20,000 bases of DNA from an uncultured virus (IMG/VR IMGVR_UViG_3300027686_000002) (lineage: Duplodnaviria > Heunggongvirae > Uroviricota > Caudoviricetes). Shown in pieces: positions 790 to 19,040 of the stretch. Both the position numbers and the translations under genes were made by a program. The notes below the pieces were generated by a model, which was not told where the DNA came from, ran no database searches, and worked only from the letters and a program-made list of their open reading frames with translations. Numbering within the stretch: the first letter of the stretch is position 1; every line of letters begins with the position of its first letter. The DNA lies in the IMG/VR virus record IMGVR_UViG_3300027686_000002. One strand, written 5' to 3'.

Positions 790-1920
790 ATGTTAGAAAA
801 TATTGTAAAACTTGATACTCTGTTTAAAAGAGATACAAAAAGTAAAGTTCGCATGTGGGAAGTTGAATATGGACAAGGTCCTAGGCTACTTGCAGGAACA
901 CGTACTATCAGTGGTTTAGTTGATGGTGCCAAAGTTACAAGCGAATGGAATATGAGTGCTCCCAAGAACGTTGGTAGAGCAAACGAAACAACCGCATTAA
1001 GCCAAGCACAAGCCGAAGCCCAATCTTTATGGGATAAACGTATTGAGAAAGAGTACTTTACAAATGTTGACAGCATTGACTCTTATGAACAATTTAAGCC
1101 AATGCTTGCACATGATTATACAAAGCGTCCACAAGACAAAGGTTGGAGTCAGCCTAAGTTAGATGGTATTCGTTGTGTAGTTAATAGTAACGGAATGTGG
1201 ACACGTAGTGGTAAAGCTATTACAAGTTGCCCACACATTTGGGAATCTTTAAAAGGTTACATGGCAGAGCATCCAGGTCATATATTAGATGGTGAACTTT
1301 ATAACCATGAACTTAAAGCAGATTTTAATAAAATTATCTCACTTGTTCGTAAAACAAAAAGCACAGAAAAAGATATGGCTGAAGCTGAAACACTAGTGCA
1401 GTATCATGTTTATGATATGTTTAATACAACAGCACCAGATATGAATTTTGTTAATCGTGTTAAGCAAGCATATTGGGCTAAAAACGATTATGTTCATATT
1501 GTAAAAACTGACTTTGCAAACAGCCAAGAAGAGCTTGATATATTGTACAGTGAATACACAGAGCAAGGTTACGAAGGCCAAATGGTACGTAACGACACAG
1601 CATATGAAAGCAAACGTAGTAAGAACTTACTGAAACGTAAAGAGTTCATTACTGAAGAATTCAAAGTTCTACAAGTACTTGAAGGCCAAGGAAATTGGAG
1701 CGGATATGCTAAACGTTTTATACTTGAACTAGCAGACGGTAGACAGTTTGGTAGTGGAGTACGTGGACAGCAAGCACAGTTGGCAGAACTGTGGGCGGCT
1801 GGCAAAACAGCTAAAGGCATGCCCAATTGGGCCACTTGTAGATACTTTGAACTAACACCAGATGGAGTTCCACGTTTTCCAGTTATTGTGGACTACGGAT
1901 ACGGTGTACGTACTGATTAA
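790..1920 (+). CDS. lig: ATP-dependent DNA ligase
   Basis: PMLA, motif I QPKLDGIR, motif III LDGELY, IIIa YHVYD, IV EGQMVR, V LLKRK, C-terminal OB region ending in PRFP; GGAGG RBS. Confidence 0.95.
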   Translation: MLENIVKLDTLFKRDTKSKVRMWEVEYGQGPRLLAGTRTISGLVDGAKVTSEWNMSAPKNVGRANETTALSQAQAEAQSLWDKRIEKEYFTNVDSIDSYEQFKPMLAHDYTKRPQDKGWSQPKLDGIRCVVNSNGMWTRSGKAITSCPHIWESLKGYMAEHPGHILDGELYNHELKADFNKIISLVRKTKSTEKDMAEAETLVQYHVYDMFNTTAPDMNFVNRVKQAYWAKNDYVHIVKTDFANSQEELDILYSEYTEQGYEGQMVRNDTAYESKRSKNLLKRKEFITEEFKVLQVLEGQGNWSGYAKRFILELADGRQFGSGVRGQQAQLAELWAAGKTAKGMPNWATCRYFELTPDGVPRFPVIVDYGYGVRTD

Positions 1921-4412: not shown

Positions 4413-5000
4413 ATGATAATACCAACAGTAATTGAATCAACAGGACGCGGCGAACGTGCATACGATATTTACAGTCGTTTGCTTAAAGATCGAATTGTAA
4501 TGCTTAATGGCGAAGTTAACGACCATACTGCAAATTTAGTAGTTGCACAGATGTTATTTTTAGAATCACAAAATAGTAGTGAAGATATTAATTTCTATAT
4601 TAATAGCCCAGGTGGTGCAGTTACAGCAGGCCTAGGAATTTACGATACTATGCAGTTTATTAAATCTCCAGTAAGTACAATTGTTATGGGCCAAGCATGT
4701 AGCATGGGTTCGTTCCTTGCTAACGCAGGCGAGCCAGGTAAGCGTTTAGTATTACCTAACAGTCGTACAATGATTCATCAGCCAAGCGGTGGTGCAGGTG
4801 GACAAGCAACTGATATGCAGATTCAAGTAAATGAGATTATTAAGATAAAAGAAAGTCTTACACGCATTTATGAGAAGCATAATAGTAAGGGCAAAACATA
4901 CGAAGTACTTGCAGAAGCTATGGAGCGTGATAACTTTATGTCCGCACAAGAAGCTGTAGACTTTGGTTTGGCCGATAAAGTTATAGAACGTAAAGTTTAA
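4413..5000 (+). CDS. clpP: ATP-dependent Clp protease proteolytic subunit
   Basis: [31 protein letters not shown], catalytic ACSMG (S), IHQP (H), RDNFM (D); AGGAG RBS. Confidence 0.98.
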
Positions 5001-8263: not shown

Positions 8264-9479
8264 TTCTTCGTTAGTTCAGTGCAATTTTTGTAGTAAAGAT
8301 ACAACACAGGTAAAGAAGCTACTAGCAGGTGAAAACCATACGCATATATGTAGTGATTGTGTTGAGCTTTGTTATGGCATAATCAAGAACGAAACTGTTA
8401 AGATAGAAAACGCTATTCAAAAGAAAACTAAAAACGTTATACCCACTCCCAAAGGAATACACAAGCACTTAGACAAGTATGTTATTAGCCAATCACATGC
8501 TAAGAAAACATTAAGTGTTGCAATGTATAATCATTATAAAAGAATTAGTAGTAAAACAAAATCAAGGTTACAAAAAAGCAACGTGCTTATTGCAGGTCCT
8601 ACTGGAACTGGCAAAACATTAATGGCACAAACACTAGCTAGGTTTTTAGATGTTCCATTTGTAATTACAGATGCTACAGTTATCACAGAAAGCGGATATG
8701 CAGGTGATGATGCAGAAGTATTAATACATAAATTATTTGCCGCAGCAGATTACGATATTGACAGATGCCAACGTGGTATTATATATGTAGATGAAATTGA
8801 TAAGAAAGCCAAGCGAAATGACTATGTTAGCTTGAGTAGAGACGTTTCTGGAGAAGGAGTCCAACAGAGCCTTTTAAAGCTCATGGAAGGTACTATAGTA
8901 GCGGTTCCGAACAAACCGACACATAACCCGGAGAAGGTCGAAATCGACACCACTAACATACTATTTGTAGTAGGTGGAGCCTTCGTTGGCCTACAAGATG
9001 TTGTGCTTGATCGACTCGGTAAAGCAAAGATAGGTTTTAACGACTCTAACGATGCCGCAATTAAAGACTGGCAAAGGCACTTACAAACACGTGACTTAGT
9101 AAAATATGGATTAATACCTGAGTTTATAGGTAGACTTCCTAGTGTTAATGTGTTAAACTTATTAAGTAAGCAAGATTTAGTAGAAATATTGACAGAACCA
9201 ACAGATAGTATTATTGATCAAATAAAAGATTTATTTTTACTTGACAAAATACAAATAGAGTTTACAATAAGTGCATTAGAAGAAGTTGCAACTGTTGCTA
9301 TAAACGAAGAAATGGGTGCTAGAGGTTTACGTAAGATTTTAGACGAAGCACTTTTAGACATCCAATATGAGTTACCTGAGATGTATGAACAAGGAGTTAG
9401 AAAAATTATTATTAACGAAAATGTAATACGCAATACCGGAAAACCCATAATTATTAAAGGCACAAACACAGTTGAATAA
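8253..9479 (+). CDS. clpX: ATP-dependent Clp protease ATP-binding subunit ClpX
   Basis: C4 zinc-binding domain (CNFC..ICSDC), GPTGTGKT, YVDEIDK, RDVSGEGVQQ, IGF loop, GLIPEFIGRLP, GARGLR. Confidence 0.97.
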   Translation: MKSSSSLVQCNFCSKDTTQVKKLLAGENHTHICSDCVELCYGIIKNETVKIENAIQKKTKNVIPTPKGIHKHLDKYVISQSHAKKTLSVAMYNHYKRISSKTKSRLQKSNVLIAGPTGTGKTLMAQTLARFLDVPFVITDATVITESGYAGDDAEVLIHKLFAAADYDIDRCQRGIIYVDEIDKKAKRNDYVSLSRDVSGEGVQQSLLKLMEGTIVAVPNKPTHNPEKVEIDTTNILFVVGGAFVGLQDVVLDRLGKAKIGFNDSNDAAIKDWQRHLQTRDLVKYGLIPEFIGRLPSVNVLNLLSKQDLVEILTEPTDSIIDQIKDLFLLDKIQIEFTISALEEVATVAINEEMGARGLRKILDEALLDIQYELPEMYEQGVRKIIINENVIRNTGKPIIIKGTNTVE

Positions 9480-9993
9480 AAGCAATTTTAAAAAGAGAGA
9501 CATCGGTCCTAAAGTAGTAGCAAATAACAGGATTAGGTGCAAGACAGTAAGAGTTTCCTTTCCAGATGGTGATAGTCAAATACTATCGATTGAGGACGCA
9601 CAGAGGAGTGCATTAGAACTAGACTTAGATTTAGTGTTGATCACTGAAACAGCAGATCCACCAGTTTGTAAAATAACTGATCTAGCTAAGTTTATATACG
9701 CCTCTAAGCAAAAAGACAAGTTGGCTAAACGAAAGCAACGTGAAAGCGTTGTTGAGACAAAGGAAATACGTTTGGGAATTAACATCGATATAGGTGACAT
9801 AACTACCAAGGCTAAGCAAGCACGTAAATTCTTAGACAAAAACAACAAAGTTACGGTTACCATTATTCTTAAAGGTAGAGAGCGGGGGAAAAGCGATAGA
9901 GCTAAAGAACTGCTAAATACATTTGCTGACACTCTAGGTGTTGAATATGAAAATATAAGCATTCAGAATAATAGAGTGACTGGAAAGATATAA
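9472..9993 (+). CDS. infC: translation initiation factor IF3
   Basis: N.RI...VR, LDLVLI...ADPPVCKI.D..KFIY, KEIRL..NID..D...K, KV.V.I..KGRE; TTG start overlaps the clpX stop. Confidence 0.92.
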   Translation: MNKSNFKKRDIGPKVVANNRIRCKTVRVSFPDGDSQILSIEDAQRSALELDLDLVLITETADPPVCKITDLAKFIYASKQKDKLAKRKQRESVVETKEIRLGINIDIGDITTKAKQARKFLDKNNKVTVTIILKGRERGKSDRAKELLNTFADTLGVEYENISIQNNRVTGKI

Positions 9994-9999
9994 CAAAAT

Positions 10000-10236
10000 A
10001 TGTCAAAAAATAATCATAAAGATCAACGAGGCGGCGGTGGCCTAACAGTTGAAGTTAGAAACAATAATGTAGAACAAGCACTACGTAAGCTAAAGAAAAT
10101 GATAGCCAAAGACGGTATCATGCAAACAATACGTGACCGTAGTCATTTTGTAAGTAATACTGAGAAACGATTAAAAGCAAATGCCGCGGCAGCTGCCAGA
10201 CATCGTAGACGTATTAAGGAAAACAAGTACGAATAA
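10000..10236 (+). CDS. rpsU: ribosomal protein bS21
   Basis: VEVRNNNVEQALRKLKK....DGI....R.R.HF....EKR signature. Confidence 0.9.
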   Translation: MSKNNHKDQRGGGGLTVEVRNNNVEQALRKLKKMIAKDGIMQTIRDRSHFVSNTEKRLKANAAAAARHRRRIKENKYE

Positions 10237-10264
10237 TTTAACAGAATTTGTCCATTTTTATGGG

Positions 10265-10351
10265 TAAATAATAATGCGTGTTAGAACTGATTTCTGCATG
10301 CAGGAATGCCGAAAGGGTTCCAAAAATCTTGCTTAACAAAGGAGAACAATT
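10265..10351 (+). promoter_or_regulatory. late promoter core plus ROSE-like RNA thermometer 5' UTR
   Basis: TAAATA 10265-10270, then three hairpins; the last has TCTTGCTT (UUGCU motif) pairing with the SD AAGGAGA. Confidence 0.7.
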
Positions 10352-10777
10352 ATGACAAGACTTACAACACTAAACCTACCAGACTTCTATAAAGCCACTA
10401 TTGGTTTTGATAGAATGTTCGATGAGATGCAAAATGCATTTAATCCAACAACTACAGGCGGGTATCCACCCTACAATATCGTTAAAGTAAACGAAACAAG
10501 CTATGCAATTAGTTTAGCAGTAGCTGGTTTTAATAAGAACGATATTAGCGTGGAGCAAGACGGTAACATGCTTACTATCAAAGCTGAAGATACTTCAGAA
10601 GAAGATGTTAAGGAATATCTACACAAGGGTATTGCAACTAGAAACTTTACAAGAGAATTTAGTTTAGCAGATTATGTAGATGTAACTGGAGCGAAACAAA
10701 ATGACGGAATTTTAGAAGTCACTTTGCAACAAAACATTCCAGATAACAAGAAACCACGTAATATTAAAATTGGATAA
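10352..10777 (+). CDS. small heat shock protein Hsp20 (IbpA-like)
   Basis: IGFDRMF, YPPYNI, LAVAGF, YLHKGIATRNF.REF.LAD, DGIL.V.L. Confidence 0.96.
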   Translation: MTRLTTLNLPDFYKATIGFDRMFDEMQNAFNPTTTGGYPPYNIVKVNETSYAISLAVAGFNKNDISVEQDGNMLTIKAEDTSEEDVKEYLHKGIATRNFTREFSLADYVDVTGAKQNDGILEVTLQQNIPDNKKPRNIKIG

Positions 10778-10788
10778 CAGGTAAAACA

Positions 10789-11091
10789 ATGGCTCAAGCA
10801 TCACACGAAGACATAGCAGAAATGACAAGGTTAAAATCACCACCTAAATTTAACGTGATTCTAATGAATGATGAAGCTACGCCTCAAGAGTTCGTAGTTA
10901 ATGTTTTAAGATCAATTTTTAATAGAACATCAGACGAAGCAGAGGCAGTGATGCTTGAAGTCCATAACAAGGGCAGAGGCATAGCTGGTACATACAGTTA
11001 CGAAGTTGCTGAACAAAAATGCGTTGAAACGATTACTGACGCAAGGCGTAATAGCTACCCACTAGACGTCACATTAGAAAAAACAGAATAA
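10789..11091 (+). CDS. clpS: Clp protease adaptor ClpS
   Basis: PPKFNVILMND..TP.EFVV.VL..IF, MLEVH..GRGIAG.Y..EVAE.K, YPL. Confidence 0.93.
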   Translation: MAQASHEDIAEMTRLKSPPKFNVILMNDEATPQEFVVNVLRSIFNRTSDEAEAVMLEVHNKGRGIAGTYSYEVAEQKCVETITDARRNSYPLDVTLEKTE

Positions 11092-11097
11092 AATTAA

Positions 11098-11667
11098 ATG
11101 AAAATAGCAATCACGCAACGTGTGATTGACTTTCGAAACGGCCCTTACGACAGCTTAGATCATGGATTCTATGACATGTTTGCAGGGCATACATTACGTC
11201 CCATTCCAAACAACTTAGAACATTATCAAACAGAGATTATAGTTAATAGTGATTTAGTAGTTTTTACGGGCGGCAATAGTATGATACCGGGCAACTGGCA
11301 ATACAATGAAGACCGGCTACGTATAGAAAAACACACGTTAGATCTAGCAAAACTTTATAATAAACCAATATTAGGTATTAGTAGAGGATGTCAATTCCTT
11401 ACTGTAAGCCTTGGCGGAAGTATTAAAGAAAGTGGTAGACATAAAGCTGATCATACAGTATACTATAAAGATAGTGAAGTAGAAGTTCATAGCAGGCATG
11501 AAGAAATATTAAGTAGTATTCCACATGGTGCTACATGCCTTGCTACAGACGACGAAGGAAATTGCGAAAGTTGGAAACTAGATAACATATTAACTGTACT
11601 TTGGCATCCTGAAAGAATGAATACACACTGGCTTCCGTATGAAGCATACAACATACTAGGATTATAA
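11098..11667 (+). CDS. class I glutamine amidotransferase-like (peptidase C26/gamma-glutamyl hydrolase) protein
   Basis: IAITQR, FTGGN, PILGISRGCQ (nucleophile elbow with Ser in place of Cys), WHPER. Confidence 0.85.
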   Translation: MKIAITQRVIDFRNGPYDSLDHGFYDMFAGHTLRPIPNNLEHYQTEIIVNSDLVVFTGGNSMIPGNWQYNEDRLRIEKHTLDLAKLYNKPILGISRGCQFLTVSLGGSIKESGRHKADHTVYYKDSEVEVHSRHEEILSSIPHGATCLATDDEGNCESWKLDNILTVLWHPERMNTHWLPYEAYNILGL

Positions 11668-11668
11668 T

Positions 11669-12085
11669 ATGAAAGTTGGAATAACATTTAGTACATTTGA
11701 TCTACTCCATGCCGGACACATTGGCATGTTGAGGGAAGCGAAATCAAATTGCGATTATCTTATTGTGGGTTTACAAAGTGACCCTACAATTGATCGCCCA
11801 AAAACAAAAAACAAACCCATACAAACAATGGTAGAGCGTTATGCACAACTTAATGCAATTAAGTTTATTGACGAAATTGTGCCATACCAAACAGAAGAAG
11901 ATTTAGTGGATATACTAGAACTGTTTGAAATTGATGTACGGTTCCTTGGTGAAGAATATAAGGAAGATGAATTCAGCGGTAAAGACGTATGTCGTAAACG
12001 TGGAATTGACTTGTATTTTAATAAACGTGAACACAGGTTTAGCACGAGCGGCCTTAGAAAAAGAGTGTGTGATAATCAAAAATGA
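11669..12085 (+). CDS. glycerol-3-phosphate cytidylyltransferase-like (TagD family)
   Basis: FSTFDLLHAGH (HxGH), YLIVGL..DP, C-terminal R.H.FSTS.LR. Confidence 0.88.
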   Translation: MKVGITFSTFDLLHAGHIGMLREAKSNCDYLIVGLQSDPTIDRPKTKNKPIQTMVERYAQLNAIKFIDEIVPYQTEEDLVDILELFEIDVRFLGEEYKEDEFSGKDVCRKRGIDLYFNKREHRFSTSGLRKRVCDNQK

Positions 12086-12414
12086 AATATATAATTGATA
12101 TAGATGGTACTATTTGTAAAGAAGTTTTTCTTGCAGATGGTAAGAAAGACTATGCTAACCATATTCCATATATGGATCGTATTGCAAAAGTAAACAAACT
12201 ACATGAAGCAGGTCATACTATCAAGTACATGACTGCACGTGGAATCACTAGTGGAATAGATTATTTTAAACTAACAAATAATCAGCTAGTAGAATGGGGT
12301 GCAAAGTTTGATGAACTTGATGTAGGTAACAAACCCCATTACGATATATGGATTGATGACAAAGCATTTTGGAGTGAGAACTTCTTTAGAGAAACAGGTG
12401 AAACATATGAGTAA
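12082..12414 (+). CDS. HAD-superfamily small phosphatase
   Basis: IDIDGTIC (DxD), TARG, KP.YD.WIDDKA. Confidence 0.85.
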   Translation: MKYIIDIDGTICKEVFLADGKKDYANHIPYMDRIAKVNKLHEAGHTIKYMTARGITSGIDYFKLTNNQLVEWGAKFDELDVGNKPHYDIWIDDKAFWSENFFRETGETYE

Positions 12415-13201
12415 ATTTATAGCCGCAATGGACCACAGTGGTGGAAGCACAGGCGGAGTACTAGAACGTTACGAACAAGATTATACAGAAGATAATAAAA
12501 TGGACCTTGTACATCAAATGCGTATGCGTATGGTTAATAGTCCAGACTTTAACAGTAATAATATTTGGGCCTCAATACTTTATAAAGATTCAGTTGAACG
12601 AGGTTTATCTATGATCCTACGTGCAAAAGGCATTGAACCATATCTTAAAATTGATAGTGGGTGTGAAGAAGATGGAACACTCAAACACTTTGATTTAGAA
12701 GAGATGTGTAAGTATGCACTTGAAATGCAATGTAGTGGTACTAAGATGCGTAGCATTATTAAAAGCGAAGAGATGATTGATGCAGTACTTAAACAACAAT
12801 TTGGTATGGCTGCATATATTAGTAACAAAGGCCTTATGCCAATTGTAGAACCAGAAATTCCAATTGATCATCCAATGAAGCGTTCGTTAGAGATTATGCT
12901 TTTTGAACAGTTAAACAATCATCTACAAACATTAGATGGTAAGTGTATTCTAAAACTTACACTACCTGATATTAAAGAACTCTATAAACCATTGACAGCA
13001 CATGAAAGTTGTAGTAGTATTGTAGCATTAAGTGGTGGATACACTACAGAAGAAGCATGCAAAAGACTAGCAAATAATCCTTCAATGGGTGCTAGCTTTA
13101 GTAGAGCATTAAGCGAGGGATTGTTCTATGGACAGACTGAGCCGGTATTTGACACACGAATAAGTGCAAATATTGATAACATTAAAAGGAGTTGTGAATG
13201 A
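12407..13201 (+). CDS. fda: fructose-bisphosphate aldolase class I
   Basis: [38 protein letters not shown] (Schiff-base K), VALSGGY, ASFSRAL.EGL; start ATG 12407. Confidence 0.92.
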
Positions 13202-14346
13202 GAATCGAAACAGAACACAAGCTAGATTATAGCGATGTATTAATTAGACCAAAGCGTAGTACGTTAGGGTCGAGAAAAGACGTTGATTTACAACGTGGAT
13301 TTACATTTAGAAACTATTTGGGAGCAAGGCCTTTAAATGAACCAGAAGACTACAGCGGTATTCCTATTATGGCTTCTAACATGGATGGAGTTGGTACATT
13401 TGAAATGGCAGACACACTTGCTAAACAAAGTATCTTCACTTGCTTAGTTAAAACATACAGCGTAGAAGAACTTGTTGAATTCTTCAATACGGATAATGAG
13501 TCTCGCACAGATAATGTTGCTATTAGTATTGGCATCATGGAAAAGGATCAACAGAAATTTAGTGACGTATATGAACAAGTTGGTGCCCGTATCAAGTATG
13601 TTTGTATTGATGTAGCAAATGGATATAGTGAACGATTTAGTAACTTTGTTAGAAAGTTTAGAAAACAATATCCATACGTAGTAATTATTGCTGGTAATGT
13701 AGTAACAGGCGAAATGACAGAGGAGTTAATTCTTAATGGAGCAGACATTGTTAAAGTTGGAATCGGACCAGGTTCCGTGTGTACAACAAGAATCCAAACA
13801 GGTGTCGGATACCCACAGCTATCTGCAGTTATTGAATGTGCAGATGCGGCACATGGACTTGGTGGACATATTATCGCTGATGGGGGTTGCAATTGTCCTG
13901 GTGACGTGGCTAAGGCATTCGCTGGCGGTGCAGATTTTGTAATGCTTGGCGGAATGCTAGCAGGACATGATGAAGGCGGTGGAAAAACTATTCTTAAACA
14001 TTATGAGACAAATGAACTTGTATATGAAATAGGTAGTCACTTGGATAAGCATACAAAGAAAATTGAAACAAAAGAGTTTGTAGCATTCTACGGAATGAGT
14101 TCAAATGCGGCAAACACAAAGCACTTCGGAGGATTGAAAGATTATAGATCAAGCGAAGGACGTGAAGTACTTGTTCCTTATCGTGGAACAGTAGAAAATA
14201 CTATACAAAATATATTAGGCGGAATACGTAGTACATGCACATACGCAGGTGCAAACCGTCTTAAATACCTAAATAAATGCACTACATTTATTATGGCTAA
14301 CAAACAGTACAACGCAGTATATGAAGCGACTACAACGAAGATTTAG
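13198..14346 (+). CDS. guaC: GMP reductase
   Basis: [70 protein letters not shown]. Confidence 0.96.
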
Positions 14347-14446
14347 CACTCTAAGACGCCGAATAAGTAGCCAGGCAAAGATTTAACAGAAGCACCTTAA
14401 AGGACTATAGGCTAAAGGAAAAAGGTAGTCATAGGAGACAATATAC

Positions 14447-14497
14447 ACTCATGCACATACGGCATAACGAAAATGCTTTACGTGCATGAGTCTTTTT
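14447..14497 (+). terminator. probable intrinsic terminator
   Basis: ACTCATGCAC...GTGCATGAGT 10-bp stem (inner GCAT/ATGC stem) followed by CTTTTT. Confidence 0.6.
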
Positions 14498-14534
14498 GTG
14501 GTCTATGTGATAAATAGAAGTGTTAAATAAGACA

Positions 14535-14682
14535 AGCGACCTCAGCTTTGAAAAAATGAGTGGCACTAGGGAAAGACCAGGGCATAACCCATGCCTTACA
14601 AGTGATGCTACAACTGTCAGGCATCGTGGTAACACCGGGAGAGACCGGAAAATTGAGACCGGATGCTTTCCCAAAAACATCC
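14535..14682 (+). ncRNA. candidate structured RNA / cis-regulatory leader
   Basis: GC-rich run of about seven short hairpins after TAAATA motifs (14511, 14524); the CTTTCCC loop is complementary to GGGAAAG and GGGAGAG. Confidence 0.55.
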
Positions 14683-14705
14683 AAAACTTTTATTAGGAGA
14701 CTAGA

Positions 14706-14933
14706 ATGACAACTCACTTTTTTAGTGGCTTGGCAGGAATCTTTGGTAAGCGCCGATGTGACTACCGTAGAGACCTCGAGAGTTACGCAAAGACGGAATA
14801 TAAACATGACTGGCGATTTGCTTATGATTATATGGTAGCTAATGAGGGCAGAGGCCCTTCAGCTTACGCACTACATCAAGAGTTAATTAAAGGAGCTGAA
14901 ATGGCTCGTTTAGAAATGGATATAAAACGATGA
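14706..14933 (+). CDS. small hypothetical protein
   Basis: 75 aa with AGGAG RBS. Confidence 0.75.
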   Translation: MTTHFFSGLAGIFGKRRCDYRRDLESYAKTEYKHDWRFAYDYMVANEGRGPSAYALHQELIKGAEMARLEMDIKR

Positions 14934-15148
14934 CAACACTAACAATTTATCAAACAACATGCAACGTATGCGAATACATAGCAGACAAGATTTCAAACGC
15001 TTGTAATAATATGATTAAAAGTTTTGAAGTAGTTGGAACAGCGAGAGCCGCTTCACAACTAGCAAGCATGGGTTATTACAAAGAAGCAGAAGCTCTTATG
15101 TTACAACTCAAAGATATAAGAAAAGAATTAGAGGCCATTAAAAAATGA
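14930..15148 (+). CDS. small protein with N-terminal CxxC
   Basis: 72 aa, ATGA-coupled; MTTL...CNVC; ARAASQLASMGY.KEA.ALM. Confidence 0.75.
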   Translation: MTTLTIYQTTCNVCEYIADKISNACNNMIKSFEVVGTARAASQLASMGYYKEAEALMLQLKDIRKELEAIKK

Positions 15149-15360
15149 CAACACTAGCAGAAACTTACTGTGCATTTTGCGATAGAATTGCACTTACCGT
15201 TAACAACTTAATTAGTAAATGGGAAAATAGAGAAAGACCGTATAACAGAGATACATACAATGCTTTATCGAAGTTGTCAGATCATGACTTAAAGGATATT
15301 GGGTTATGCCGAGGCGATATCATGTTTATCGCTAAGGGTGGATCGATTTACCGTAAATAA
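15145..15360 (+). CDS. DUF1127 domain small protein with N-terminal CxxC
   Basis: R.TYNALSKLSDHDLKDIGLCRGDI is the DUF1127 signature (L..LsDr.L.DIGl.R.di). Confidence 0.88.
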   Translation: MTTLAETYCAFCDRIALTVNNLISKWENRERPYNRDTYNALSKLSDHDLKDIGLCRGDIMFIAKGGSIYRK

Positions 15361-15396
15361 AAAACCCTTGCTCAGATAACACTAGTTTTAATCGGC

Positions 15397-15402
15397 TAAA
15401 TA
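15397..15402 (+). promoter_or_regulatory. T4-like late promoter core TAAATA, 5 nt before ATG
   Basis: GC-TAAATA-GTTGT-ATG(15408); no SD sequence. Confidence 0.6.
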
Positions 15403-15407
15403 GTTGT

Positions 15408-16379
15408 ATGAGCAAGGTACATCTTTTATCACAAATAATAGCTAATTTACAGCTACCTACAACTCAAGACGAGAAGATTGAGTTACTAACCACCTATAAT
15501 AAAGAAATCATACTGAAACGCATTATAAGTATTGCGTATAATCCATGGATTGATCTTGGTATGACTAAGTTTAAGCCTAGACATACTGGTAAACAGTTTG
15601 GAATGGGTATAGCTAGATTCTTACATATTCTAGATGATATTATAGATGAAAAATATTCACATAAAGAAAAAGAGTTTTCATGCAATATGGCACTTATGCA
15701 TATTGAACAAAATGATGCTAAACTCTTTACTAGCTTAATTACACAGTCATTAGATCTATGCTTAGATATTGAATCAATCAATACAGTTTGGCCTGGATTA
15801 ATAATGAACTATCCAATAAGCACTCCAGTTACTACAGACTATAAAGAATTTAAATTGTTTCCAGCATCAGTACAACCACTTAGCAGAGGCTTACGAGTCA
15901 ATGTAATGGTTTACAATGATGTTGTATTCTATAAAGACAAGCTAGGTAATAATATACTAGGTTGGGAAATATATGACAAACAATTTATTAACCTAGCACA
16001 AGGTAACAATACAGTATTTGATGGGCATGCAGTAGTTGCAGAAGGCGTTAACGTTGTTGAAGTTGCAAACGATAAGGTACTAGAAGCAGAAGCAGAGAAC
16101 ATTAGATTCATGTTATGGGACGTTATACGTTATGATGGGTTTGTTAAAGGTGAAGACACACGCATGGGTTATAACTGGCGTTACAACGGTATTGAACATA
16201 TGCAAATATTAGCCATAGACAAGAATCCTGCTCCTTGTTATGATTTAGTTCGTGCTGAATTAGTAGGTAGTCAAGAGCAATTAGCACTTACTGTGTCTAA
16301 ATTCAGTGGATGTGTTATTAAGAGCTTAGATGGTATCTGGAAACACGGTCCAGATGAAACACAAGTTATTTGCGTCTAA
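15408..16379 (+). CDS. degenerate T4 gp30-like DNA ligase paralog (no catalytic Lys, no OB domain)
   Basis: Helical N-terminal domain, FPASVQPLSRGLRV in place of motif I (FPA..Q.KxDG.R), VFDGH (III), FMLWDVI (IIIa), GCVIKSLDGIW (IV); the protein ends there. Confidence 0.65.
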   Translation: MSKVHLLSQIIANLQLPTTQDEKIELLTTYNKEIILKRIISIAYNPWIDLGMTKFKPRHTGKQFGMGIARFLHILDDIIDEKYSHKEKEFSCNMALMHIEQNDAKLFTSLITQSLDLCLDIESINTVWPGLIMNYPISTPVTTDYKEFKLFPASVQPLSRGLRVNVMVYNDVVFYKDKLGNNILGWEIYDKQFINLAQGNNTVFDGHAVVAEGVNVVEVANDKVLEAEAENIRFMLWDVIRYDGFVKGEDTRMGYNWRYNGIEHMQILAIDKNPAPCYDLVRAELVGSQEQLALTVSKFSGCVIKSLDGIWKHGPDETQVICV

Positions 16380-17451: not shown

Positions 17452-17500
17452 TGCGTAATTGAAATTAACATTTGTGTTAATTAAATATTTGATAAATAGG

Positions 17501-17531
17501 TTGACAGAAGACACTACATAGTGTATAAATA
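17501..17531 (+). promoter_or_regulatory. composite sigma70/late promoter of the tmRNA
   Basis: TTGACA-17 nt-TATAAATA; the -10 region doubles as a full T4 late consensus. Confidence 0.75.
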
Positions 17532-17536
17532 TAACT

Positions 17537-17866
17537 TGTAACGTTGAAACTTAATTGAACGCTAAACTGGACCTGGGGGCAGTACCCAGCAGCTCCACCA
17601 TAAACACATCGCCGTGTGGACCGAAAGACGGATTCTATAGGCGTTTCGGCATATGTCGCAGTAGAATATTACGGTGTGTTTTTGATGGGGCTGATATAGG
17701 ATCGACAGGTAGACTAGATAAGTGGAGTTATCCCGATGTAAGCTGGGTTAACGCGAACAAACTTTATAATTGCAAACGCAAATTATGAGCCAGAAATGGC
17801 AATAGCAGCCTAAATTAGGTATGTAGGGGTTTTGGTAACTTGGACCTGGCAACAGAATCAAGTTGC
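17537..17866 (+). ncRNA. ssrA: permuted (two-piece) tmRNA, alphaproteobacterial type
   Basis: Acceptor piece ends GGACCTGGGGGCAGTACCCAGCAGCTCCACCA (17600); intervening segment 17601-17686; coding piece starts GGGGCTGATATAGGATCGAC (17687); tag frame 17772-17813 encodes ANANYEPEMAIAA*; 3' hairpin contains CCTGGCAACAGAA. Outer ends are approximate. Confidence 0.93.
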
Positions 17867-17911
17867 AAACTTCATGGACATAAGTTCATGATTATCTTAA
17901 ACAGGAATAAT

Positions 17912-18963: not shown

Positions 18964-19040
18964 GCACCCTTAGCTCATCTGGATAGAGCGTTGGTTTGCG
19001 GAACCAGAGGTAATAGGTTCGAGTCCTGTAGGGTGCACCA
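18964..19040 (+). tRNA. tRNA-Arg(GCG)
   Basis: Acceptor GCACCCT/AGGGTGC, D arm GCTC/GAGC with A20, anticodon arm TTGGT-TTGCGGA-ACCAG, T arm ATAGG-TTCGAGT-CCTGT, encoded CCA. Confidence 0.95.

Follow-up and report, generated by a model that had tools for sequence, protein, structure and literature searches.

Evidence for a new family of structured RNA leaders ahead of small-protein operons in marine phages

The DNA analysed here, called the window, is a stretch of 20,000 nucleotides (nt) from an uncultured virus of the Caudoviricetes (IMG/VR record IMGVR_UViG_3300027686_000002). With near certainty, positions 14522-14705 are the 5′ leader of a late-transcribed phage operon of three small proteins, and this leader represents a previously undescribed structured-RNA family. 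It spans about 185 nt, from a late-promoter-like box to the AUG at 14706. An earlier note, made from the sequence alone, had proposed a new structured RNA here, equipped with a switch between loops. The hairpins, the repeat and the complementary loops that it listed are all present, the element does lie between a late-promoter-like box and the ribosome-binding site (RBS) of a small-protein operon, and it is a structured non-coding RNA element on the plus strand, conserved and covarying in relatives. The note had tied its proposal to conservation in homologous loci and to the lack of an Rfam match, and on both counts the outcome favours the finding.

Covariation in the relatives of the leader

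Taken alone, the sequence of the leader makes a poor case for structure. The fold energy lies at the level of shuffled sequences (z = −1.59 on the plus strand, where 16 of 200 shuffles are as good, and −1.31 on the minus strand). The sequence GGGARAGACCRG occurs twice in the window against 0.10 expected, and none of 200 shuffles attains two copies. Complementary loops are there as well: CTTTCCC at 14666-14672 is the exact complement of GGGAAAG at 14569-14575 and can pair, with G-U, with GGGAGAG at 14637-14643. A 7-nt complement is, however, at chance level (one observed, shuffle mean 0.67, at least one in 39.5% of 1000 dinucleotide shuffles). Since neither the fold energy nor this complement stands out from shuffles, the single sequence proves little and the case rests on relatives.

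Relatives were reached through the protein of the first gene of the operon (ORF1, for open reading frame 1) and through the leader itself. A first ORF1 search found, besides an identical contig, a single divergent lineage, with 55% identity across the 31 residues matched; its upstream DNA has long blocks identical to the window and, between them, a hairpin of different sequence. A 17-mer from a conserved block retrieved 20 viral stretches, 19 of which hold the same leader type before an ORF1 homologue; the twentieth, L013, was rejected as a chance match. Searches with an ORF1 alignment returned 221 relatives among viral contigs and at least 501 among metagenome contigs (80 retrieved in each case), and three in a prokaryote set with one genome per species, all in metagenome-assembled genomes (MAGs). 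With an nhmmer profile the leader was found upstream in 153 of 163 loci, four of the ten misses being loci without upstream DNA. The motif of the last hairpin (H5) alone, with no protein used, retrieved more than 120 viral contigs. Judged from these searches, the RNA family recurs in at least several hundred uncultured marine phage contigs. Each phage record has one leader copy, including a complete genome of 342,607 bp with terminal repeats. A MAG assigned to Candidatus Neomarinimicrobiota holds leader and operon on a 335-kb contig and, identically, again on a 12.5-kb contig (PBPT01000067.1 and PBPT01000016.1); either the binning swept in a large phage genome, or the assignment hints at the host.

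A covariance model (R1) was built from 11 MAFFT-aligned sequences with five hand-drawn hairpins comprising 26 pairs. It matches all 89 related sources, once each, on the operon strand and directly before the first small ORF, with E-values from 1.4e-30 to 0.08; six AT-rich minimal members reach only E 0.07-0.08. The match in the window covers 14560-14684 (34.1 bits, E 8.3e-6). In the R1-based alignment of 77 distinct rows, 96.4% of 1731 cells are paired, compared with 78.5% after shuffling and 32-44% when the partners are slid by one to three columns. Changes on both sides occur in 22 of 26 pairs (mean 11.9 in shuffles), and none of 500 shuffles attains any of the observed measures. Because this alignment is fitted to the model, the count was repeated on a plain MAFFT alignment of 22 sequences, in which 96.3% of cells are paired against 28-42% with slid partners, and seven pairs are compensatory. 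Five hairpins of the window are thereby backed by relatives (14566-14580, 14581-14595, 14604-14625, 14635-14648 and 14661-14682). On these alignments, covariation support is on a par with that of many curated Rfam families. One position is G-U in 45 of 59 rows, the commonest pair there, and would be C-A on the opposite strand, which places the RNA on the plus strand.

The possibility that what is conserved is a small protein gene, on one strand or the other, such as the 83-residue minus-strand frame at 14429-14680, is practically negligible. A stop-free frame does cross the core in 56 of 73 distinct sequences on the minus strand and in 36 of 73 on the plus strand, and a peptide-like match, LVRHGxCPGLS, is found in two lineages. 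However, the core lengths occupy all three classes modulo 3 (13, 36 and 24 of the 73 distinct sequences), substitutions concentrate in paired columns, where they compensate, and the aligned sequences have no conserved start codon or RBS. The core lengths and the compensatory pattern together exclude a protein-coding explanation.

The novelty that the earlier note expected also stands, since the element is absent from Rfam 15 in the window and in seven relatives. At gathering thresholds the window matches only transfer-messenger RNA (tmRNA) and transfer RNA (tRNA) models, both outside the leader. At E ≤10 the segment 14300-14800 gives chance rows only, the best in the leader being a minus-strand row for Esr41 (17.3 bits, where the gathering threshold is 102), and the seven relatives give no match at E ≤1. 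Deposited phage genomes gave no real match by blastn with three leaders or by tblastn with two ORF1 proteins; the sole matches were 22-nt chance matches inside Salmonella phage genes (E 0.1). No cultured phage in the searched collection carries the RNA, and a literature search of full text, supplementary files being outside its scope, found no description of it. Absent from Rfam 15, from the deposited phage genomes searched and from the literature searched, this is a new RNA family of a familiar general kind.

Anatomy of the leader and the proposed loop-loop switch

The RNA has no enclosing helix. It is a serial chain of hairpins that ends in a near-invariant hairpin with the pyrimidine-rich loop CUUUCCYNAA. 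In the window the chain opens with H0 (14541-14560, plus strand, as are all features of the leader), in which CUCA at 14541-14544 pairs with UGAG at 14557-14560 around the A-rich loop GCUUUGAAAAAA. The H0 module, AGCGNCCUCAGCU..AAAAAUGAG, is kept in the clade of the window and in some leaders of the type A described below. The earlier note had listed this hairpin, and support for it is weak: one compensatory change (C-G to A-U, in L040/L136) speaks for it and a G-A mismatch in the L071 group against it.

H1 (14566-14580), preceded by GGCAC, is a purine-loop unit, CU(A)GG-GAAAGA-CCAG, with A14568 bulged. All four of its pairs are changed on both sides, 99.6% of cells pair in the family alignment, and the loop consensus is GAWAGA. 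H2 (14581-14595; GGCAU-AACCC-AUGCC) abuts H1 directly and has both-side changes in five of five pairs with 97.8% of cells paired; compensation is also seen on the structure-naive MAFFT alignment. The single-stranded junction UUACAAGU follows (14596-14603; family consensus WUAMAAGYG) and is invariant or nearly so among lineages with differing neighbour stems. The next hairpin, H3′ (14604-14625; GAUGCU/AGGCAUC, 10-nt loop), has a different sequence in each lineage: GGCGC/GCGCU, GAUAC/GUAUC, GACAC/GUGUC and AUAUAG/CUAUAU take its place in the other members of the window's clade of five lineages. In the equivalent type A helix, seven of eight pairs are changed on both sides.

The linker GUGGUAACA (14626-14634; clade consensus GUGGUARC) repeats the GUGGCAC that precedes H1. 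It leads to H4 (14635-14648), a second purine-loop unit, CCGG-GAGAGA-CCGG, with both-side changes in four of four pairs and 100% of cells paired; within the clade its third pair changes from G-C to A-U or U-A. A hairpin GTG-GTAA-CAC (14626-14635), which the earlier note had drawn in this region, shares C14635 with H4; it is unable to form in the other four lineages of the clade and is not conserved. The last bases of the A-rich linker at 14649-14660 start a second copy of GAGACCGG. This duplication (14641-14648 and 14655-14662) occurs in the window lineage only, the other four clade lineages being without it, and the duplicate offers an alternative partner for CCGG at 14635-14638 that would break H5.

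H5 itself (14661-14682; GGAUG-CUUUCCCAAAAA-CAUCC), with its pyrimidine-rich loop, is the most conserved module of the family and takes the form GGUAU-UGC-UUUCCUCAA-GCA-UCC in type A. One GC pair of its inner stem is invariant (77 of 77) and the other pairs are formed in 92.9-95.7% of cells. The Shine-Dalgarno sequence (SD) AGGAG at 14695-14699 and the ORF1 start codon at 14706-14708 were read from the sequence. H5 ends about 10-12 nt before the SD; the medians, counted from the end of the R1 match, are 9 nt to the SD and 20 nt to the AUG. The stretch had been called GC-rich, and its G+C content does exceed that of its surroundings, if only modestly (0.44-0.46 against 0.32-0.40).

Two layouts can be told apart. 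In type A, to which most members belong, GACAC is followed by H1 with a GAWAGA loop, H2, UUACAAGYGAUUGAC, H3, CACCG, H4 with the loop GGAAGUU or AAAAGA, GGUAU, H5 (UGC-UUUCCUCAA-GCA) and UCC. Type B, that of the window, runs from the 5′ hairpin with the A-rich loop through H1, H2, UUACAAGYG, the variable hairpin and GUGGUARC to H4 with the loop GAGAGA, the A-rich linker and H5 (GGAUG-CUUUCCCAAAAA-CAUCC). Common to the family is a recurrent module, (U)GAC(R)-stem-G[NAWAGA]C-stem, in one to four copies, with one or two further hairpins in some members. Under a strict scan of 76 distinct leaders, canonical units number one in 41, two in 22, three in 11 and four in two; their loops are GAUAGA, AAAAGA, GAAAGA, GAGAGA or CAAAGA and their 5′ flanks GACA or GACG. 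Units in tandem (L064, L188) repeat every 19-21 nt, and minimal members (L087, L091) consist of two units and H5 only. Across lineages the stems drift and compensate, the loops and linkers stay constant, and the number of units differs. Elsewhere in five phage records the unit pattern shows no enrichment (nine matches, three of them the leaders, against 12 in a reversed control).

According to the earlier note, the H5 loop CUUUCCC would kiss the loop of H1 (GGGAAAG) or, alternatively, that of H4 (GGGAGAG), a switch that we now regard as very unlikely. The complementarity does exist in the window, many relatives have complementary stretches of 6-8 nt if G-U pairs and stem bases are allowed, and the ViennaRNA minimum-energy fold pairs GGGAGAG with CUUUCCC. 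Against this, the H5 loop and the purine loops do not covary. Where the H5 loop varies, to CUAACCAUAAAG/CUAACCACAAAG (seven distinct sequences), CUGUCC (two), CUAUCC (one) or CUUCCC (five), the purine loops are unchanged and at most 4 nt of complementarity are left, so that the proposal failed its comparative test. About half of the H1 loops read GAUAGA, giving a central U-U mismatch with CUUUCC. The complementary stretch lies partly inside the covarying H1 and H4 stems, and the nested alternative fold depends on the GAGACCGG duplication unique to the window lineage and is without comparative support. In the clade of the window the H5, H1 and H4 loops are all invariant, and there a switch might still operate. 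On the aligned sequences, the loop-loop switch is unsupported.

Other long-range contacts were considered and rejected. Pairing of the H5 loop with the SD (UUUCCU/AGGAGA, 6 bp including one G-U) is possible in principle; CUAACCA, CUGUCC and the type B variants are unable to form it, and it is the main predicted SD partner in three of 76 sequences. Kissing of the H1 and H2 loops (GGAUA/UAUCC) fits some combinations only, and the two hairpins abut without a linker. The spacer before the SD could, in some members, close the structure by pairing with the 5′ CA-rich flank or the H2-H3 junction (J2/3; UGAUU/AAUCA), a helix that by eye is unconserved. Partition functions for the 76 sequences predict no conserved pairing partner of the SD: by single-sequence thermodynamics the main partner lies in the core in 35, in coding sequence in 17, at the 5′ end in eight, in the spacer in three and in the H5 loop in three, and the SD is unpaired in ten.

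The small-protein operon and its phage

The leader is followed on the plus strand by three mutually overlapping small ORFs (14706-14933, 14930-15148 and 15145-15360), of which only the last has a Pfam match. ORF1 (14706-14933, 75 residues) represents a new small-protein family with the motif AKTEYxxDW..AY..M..G..P. It has no Pfam or PHROG match, and Pfam run on 40 members gave scattered matches only (E ≥ 0.035). Its AlphaFold2 (AF2) model has four helices (predicted local distance difference test, pLDDT, 70.5); Foldseek found nothing for it in the PDB (best E = 5), and the ESM Atlas gave no usable match for ORF1 and only viral hypothetical clusters for ORF2. ORF2 (14930-15148, 72 residues) has no Pfam match either and was found in 149 of 164 loci of the first-round search. 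ORF3 (15145-15360, 71 residues) is a DUF1127 protein (PF06568, E 2.1e-11). ORF2 and the DUF1127 proteins of these operons have a common N-terminal T-x-C-x-x-C segment.

The earlier note had spoken of a DUF1127 operon. This describes the window, whose third gene is DUF1127, and does not extend to the family: DUF1127 is present in 97 of 164 related operons, and genes of the ORF2 and DUF1127 families vary in order and number after ORF1. The constant neighbour of the RNA is the ORF1 family, not DUF1127. Among loci found through the H5 motif (80 of the more than 120 matches), ORF1 is the next gene in 70 of 77 that could be evaluated, three being too short. Some operons encode a DUF3563 small protein (PF12086; L026 909-1064, E 1.6e-9, and L254 378-533, E 2e-7), and it is the first gene after the leader in L254 and L257. 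Leader subtype and DUF1127 presence show no positive association in a descriptive count that is confounded by relatedness.

The late-promoter-like box GATAAATA lies at 14509-14516 on the plus strand. It resembles TATAAATA, which we take to be the T4-type late promoter consensus; of 71 distinct loci, 67 have a box with at most one mismatch to it in the 150 nt upstream, exact in 44, whereas background windows give 20% and 4.7%. From the box, transcription would start at about 14521-14522. Upstream lies a GMP reductase gene (13198-14346, PF00478), then a long terminator-like hairpin on the plus strand (14447-14499), read from the sequence, with a 10-bp outer stem ACTCATGCAC/GTGCATGAGT, an inner GCAT/ATGC and then the U-run CTTTTTGT. 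It is probably the intrinsic terminator of the GMP reductase gene and, closing that gene, would let the leader begin its own transcription unit. This long hairpin also accounts for the Rfam rows over 14431-14506, all sub-threshold microRNA-type hairpin models. A scan of 14300-15500, leader included, found no terminator-like site on the plus strand; loops longer than 8 nt escape it, hence it missed the 14447-14499 hairpin. Given the gene overlaps and the lack of a terminator, the leader would be co-transcribed with the DUF1127 gene.

The window belongs to a 40-kb viral contig with an estimated completeness of 12% of the genome. A ClpP-like protease (4413-5000) has its closest counterparts, at 64-66% identity, in Agrobacterium phage Atu_ph07 (490 kb) and Sinorhizobium phage Phosso (469 kb). 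The regions 17497-17904 and 18964-19040 contain a permuted tmRNA of the two-piece alpha type (Rfam tmRNA_permuted 106.4 bits, alpha_tmRNA 99.3 bits), with the tag peptide ANYEPEMAIAA according to ARAGORN, and a tRNA-Arg(GCG). Protease and tmRNA suggest a large (jumbo) phage of an alphaproteobacterium. The permuted tmRNA follows the DUF1127 operon at a distance of 2.1 kb, and tmRNA co-precipitates with DUF1127 proteins according to the CcaF1 paper (PMC8034643).

Two ORFs of the window (790-1920 and 15408-16379) match the ATP-dependent DNA ligase phrog_114 (E 3.8e-64 and 1.3e-20), the second standing directly 3′ of the small-protein operon. A run of auxiliary genes at 9472-13201 encodes a translation-initiation-factor-like protein (phrog_9787), Hsp20, a ClpS-like adaptor, a glutamine amidotransferase-like protein, heptose-pathway enzymes and a class I aldolase-like protein; the GMP reductase gene is just downstream.

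Expression and possible roles

The stretch is at least partly present in 13 sequencing runs, ten of them recorded as RNA. The expression data are Logan contigs of four seawater RNA libraries from three studies, a weak hint, RNA ends, strand and processing lying beyond contig data. Leader and ORF1/ORF2 are covered in all four libraries; parts of the 3.5-kb stretch are uncovered in some runs. In run X2 the contig depth is 102 over the leader and 123 over ORF1/ORF2, against 37 upstream and 23-30 downstream, and in X5 it is 54.8 against 10-15 at the neighbours, roughly a threefold excess over the adjoining genes in both runs. Contigs start at 14521 in X3 and at 14535 in X2, and an X5 contig (14314-14906) spans the predicted promoter. 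The depths weakly suggest that the unit gives rise to an abundant transcript. Run X2 (loose ends at 14569 and 14602) also contains a second related leader, of the L071 type, so that more than one member of the family occurs in that sample.

We tentatively propose, at somewhat less than an even chance, that the leader is an array of protein-binding sites that would serve the operon mRNA as an operator or processing platform, resembling in function the CcsR/DUF1127 (CIN1) loci of alphaproteobacteria. Conserved loops and linkers over turned-over stems, the variable number of units and the lack of an enclosing helix argue for an array recognised by a macromolecule, not for a ligand pocket. Late in infection, a small RNA-binding protein would coat the hairpins and so set how the operon mRNA is translated, how stable it is or whether it is cleaved. 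The partner would most plausibly be encoded by the operon (ORF1, or an arginine-rich ORF2/DUF1127-type protein), or else come from the host. The family itself, with its structure, strand, position, single copy per genome and occurrence in RNA libraries, is established here; what we infer is where transcription starts, that a protein binds, which protein it is and how this affects the operon.

Several observations weigh against this proposal: (i) ORF1 has no recognisable RNA-binding fold by Pfam, AF2, Foldseek or the ESM Atlas; (ii) DUF1127 is found in only 97 of the 164 loci and is mostly missing within 1 kb of leaders with an AAAAGA-type H4 (16 of 19 distinct loci), and therefore cannot be the general partner; (iii) the first gene is other than ORF1 in seven of 77 loci, being DUF1127 in two, DUF3563 in two and ORF2-like in three; (iv) the junction nucleotides (UUACAAGYGAUUGAC) are very strongly conserved, which could equally mean tertiary structure; (v) the SD has a mean unpaired probability of 0.39 with partners that vary between sequences, so that no consistent SD state emerges; and (vi) the evidence at the RNA level comes from contigs only.

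The leader could instead be cut from the late mRNA and act in trans, as a counterpart of CcsR/CcaF1 or as a decoy that sequesters a host RNA-binding protein, which we hold to be unlikely though the strongest of the alternatives. The pyrimidine loop CUUUCCUC of H5 would then be an anti-SD-like seed and the purine-loop hairpins would be handles for protein. CIN1 offers a precedent, in that RNase E, assisted by the DUF1127 protein, frees pyrimidine-loop small RNAs (sRNAs) there (PMC8034643). An AU-rich single-stranded spacer 3′ of H5, the rank of H5 as the most conserved module, and the variable copy number of the units, as in sponge RNAs, fit the same picture. Yet the X2 depth of the leader is no higher than that of ORF1/ORF2 and gives no hint of separate accumulation, no terminator follows the leader, and the H5 loop CUUUCCCAAAAA of the window's clade and the CUAACCAUAAAG variant are not anti-SD-like. 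The motif CCUCCUCCC is missing, and Rfam models including ar14 do not match.

A partner-free role for the leader, as a passive stabiliser at the 5′ end or an enhancer of translation, is improbable, and less probable than action in trans. Here the hairpins would block 5′-end-dependent decay and the A- and CA-rich linkers would aid ribosome loading. The predicted start is immediately followed by a hairpin, and hairpins stay dense until about 10-12 nt short of the SD; contig depth of the operon exceeds that of its neighbours in RNA libraries, and no conserved helix sequestering the SD was found. Such a role would need structure only, yet loops (GAWAGA, AAAAGA, CUUUCCUCAA) and linkers (GAC, GGUAU, UUACAAG) are conserved despite full turnover of the stems.

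A riboswitch, with a ligand held in the conserved junctions or with tandem hairpins like those of the guanidine-II class, is less probable still and ranks just below the loop-loop switch. In guanidine-II riboswitches, two small hairpins with conserved loops dock on ligand binding. Unpaired UUACAAGYGAUUGAC, CACCG and GGGGUAU are indeed very strongly conserved beside covarying stems, in a 5′ untranslated region (UTR) near the RBS. The architecture, however, is unfixed: units number one to four, and H2, H3 and the conserved junction are missing from minimal members. An enclosing helix is lacking, the scan for terminators found none on the plus strand, single-sequence thermodynamics predict no consistent alternative that would sequester the SD, and the small proteins downstream, of unknown or regulatory function, include no enzyme or transporter that would point to a metabolite.

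Returning to the operator or processing platform, the leader heads operons of very small proteins only (the ORF1 and ORF2 families, DUF1127, DUF3563), whose roles are a current open question. A conserved RNA tied to their genes offers a concrete handle, the loops being a candidate recognition code, and the fact that this is a phage system suggests host takeover at a late stage of infection. DUF1127 proteins are arginine-rich, and one of them, CcaF1, binds RNA (PMC8034643, PMC11707872). The covariance model lets such operons and their late promoters be annotated in marine viromes. DUF1127 proteins have also reportedly been described, in a 2025 paper, as regulators of the phosphate sensor PhoR. 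A broader conjecture, also unlikely and ranked between plain action in trans and the passive stabiliser, is that the leader is released from an abundant late mRNA and acts in trans on the host together with the small arginine-rich proteins of the operon. It might act as a decoy, titrating a host RNA-binding protein or defence protein that recognises G[NAWAGA]C hairpins, or as a CcsR-like regulator whose pyrimidine loop masks ribosome-binding sites. If true, the sRNA/DUF1127 (CIN1) module of alphaproteobacteria would have a counterpart carried by phages, and one that is widespread among marine phages with large genomes.

Comparison with known systems

Type III antitoxin arrays of the ToxI kind are tandem direct repeats of about 34-45 nt beside a ToxN-type toxin gene. 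The tandem units found here measure 19-21 nt, no ToxN-like gene is among the window ORFs scanned, and the downstream genes are the small proteins ORF1, ORF2, DUF1127 and DUF3563.

CsrB and RsmZ, which serve CsrA, and the coat-protein operators of MS2 and PP7 are sponge or operator RNAs with repeated loop motifs. The leader resembles them in its repeated small hairpins, in the conservation of loop rather than stem sequence and in its variable copy number. It differs in being a 5′ leader array, present in a single copy per genome and not found at other genes. The GGA recognised by CsrA is lacking in the loops AAAAGA (27 units), CAAAGA (7) and GCGCAGA (5), and GAWAGA units contain it only if the closing G of the stem is counted.

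The boxB hairpins of lambdoid nut sites are bound by the arginine-rich N protein. Like them, the units have a short stem and a purine loop starting with GA, stand in a phage leader and have arginine-rich small proteins nearby (WRRNRARKAMIARTRR, in the DUF1127 protein of L008). In contrast to boxB, they are hexaloops ending in AGA, not GNRA-like pentaloops, and several units precede a pyrimidine-loop hairpin. Nor was a boxA identified, and the operon, of about 650 nt, has no downstream terminators to override.

A cultured comparison for the operon is the Methylophilales phage Melnitz EXVC044M (Kyanoviridae; L319, MZ577097.1, 1285-2019), a marine T4-like phage with a homologous operon. It shares the TATAAATA box, an untranslated leader (about 105 nt there) and three small ORFs, the first with RTEY and the third a DUF1127 protein 42% identical to that of the window over 99% of its length. 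Its leader, however, is unrelated: R1 finds nothing there with filters off, the best plus-strand match lying elsewhere at 4.9 bits. Since Melnitz has the operon without the R1 leader, the operon is older or more widespread than the RNA family, and Melnitz could stand in experimentally for the proteins, though not for the RNA.

The nearest functional analogue would be CIN1. In these alphaproteobacterial loci, CcsR or 'cuckoo' hairpin sRNAs (Rfam ar14) share a transcript with the DUF1127 gene ccaF1, the sRNAs lie in the 3′ or 5′ UTR and have pyrimidine loops, and CcaF1 binds RNA and promotes their RNase E-dependent maturation (PMC8034643). This bears out the background given in the earlier note, that RNA binding and co-transcription with sRNAs occur among the DUF1127 proteins of alphaproteobacteria. 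Cuckoo RNAs are defined in the same source by two stem-loops with CCUCCUCCC in each loop (PMC8034643). The window has no match to CCTCCTCCC with up to one mismatch, and the CCUCCUCCC loop is absent. The loops here are GAAAGA, GAGAGA, AACCC and CUUUCCCAAAAA, and most loops of the family are purine-rich (GAWAGA or AAAAGA). The leader further differs from CIN1 in being phage-encoded behind a T4-type late-promoter box and in having no Rfam match; ORF1 is its constant neighbour and DUF1127 dispensable, and its hairpins are not split into sRNA genes by terminators. The likenesses lie in the plan. In both systems, short hairpins with conserved loops form an array on the same transcript as small DUF1127-type proteins (co-transcription being predicted here), the array can be in the 5′ UTR (in Sinorhizobium for CIN1), its copy number varies by taxon and one loop is pyrimidine-rich. 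A DUF1127 gene adjoins, as the third gene of the operon here, though not throughout the family. Although not a member of the CIN1 family, the leader may work like a CIN1 locus.

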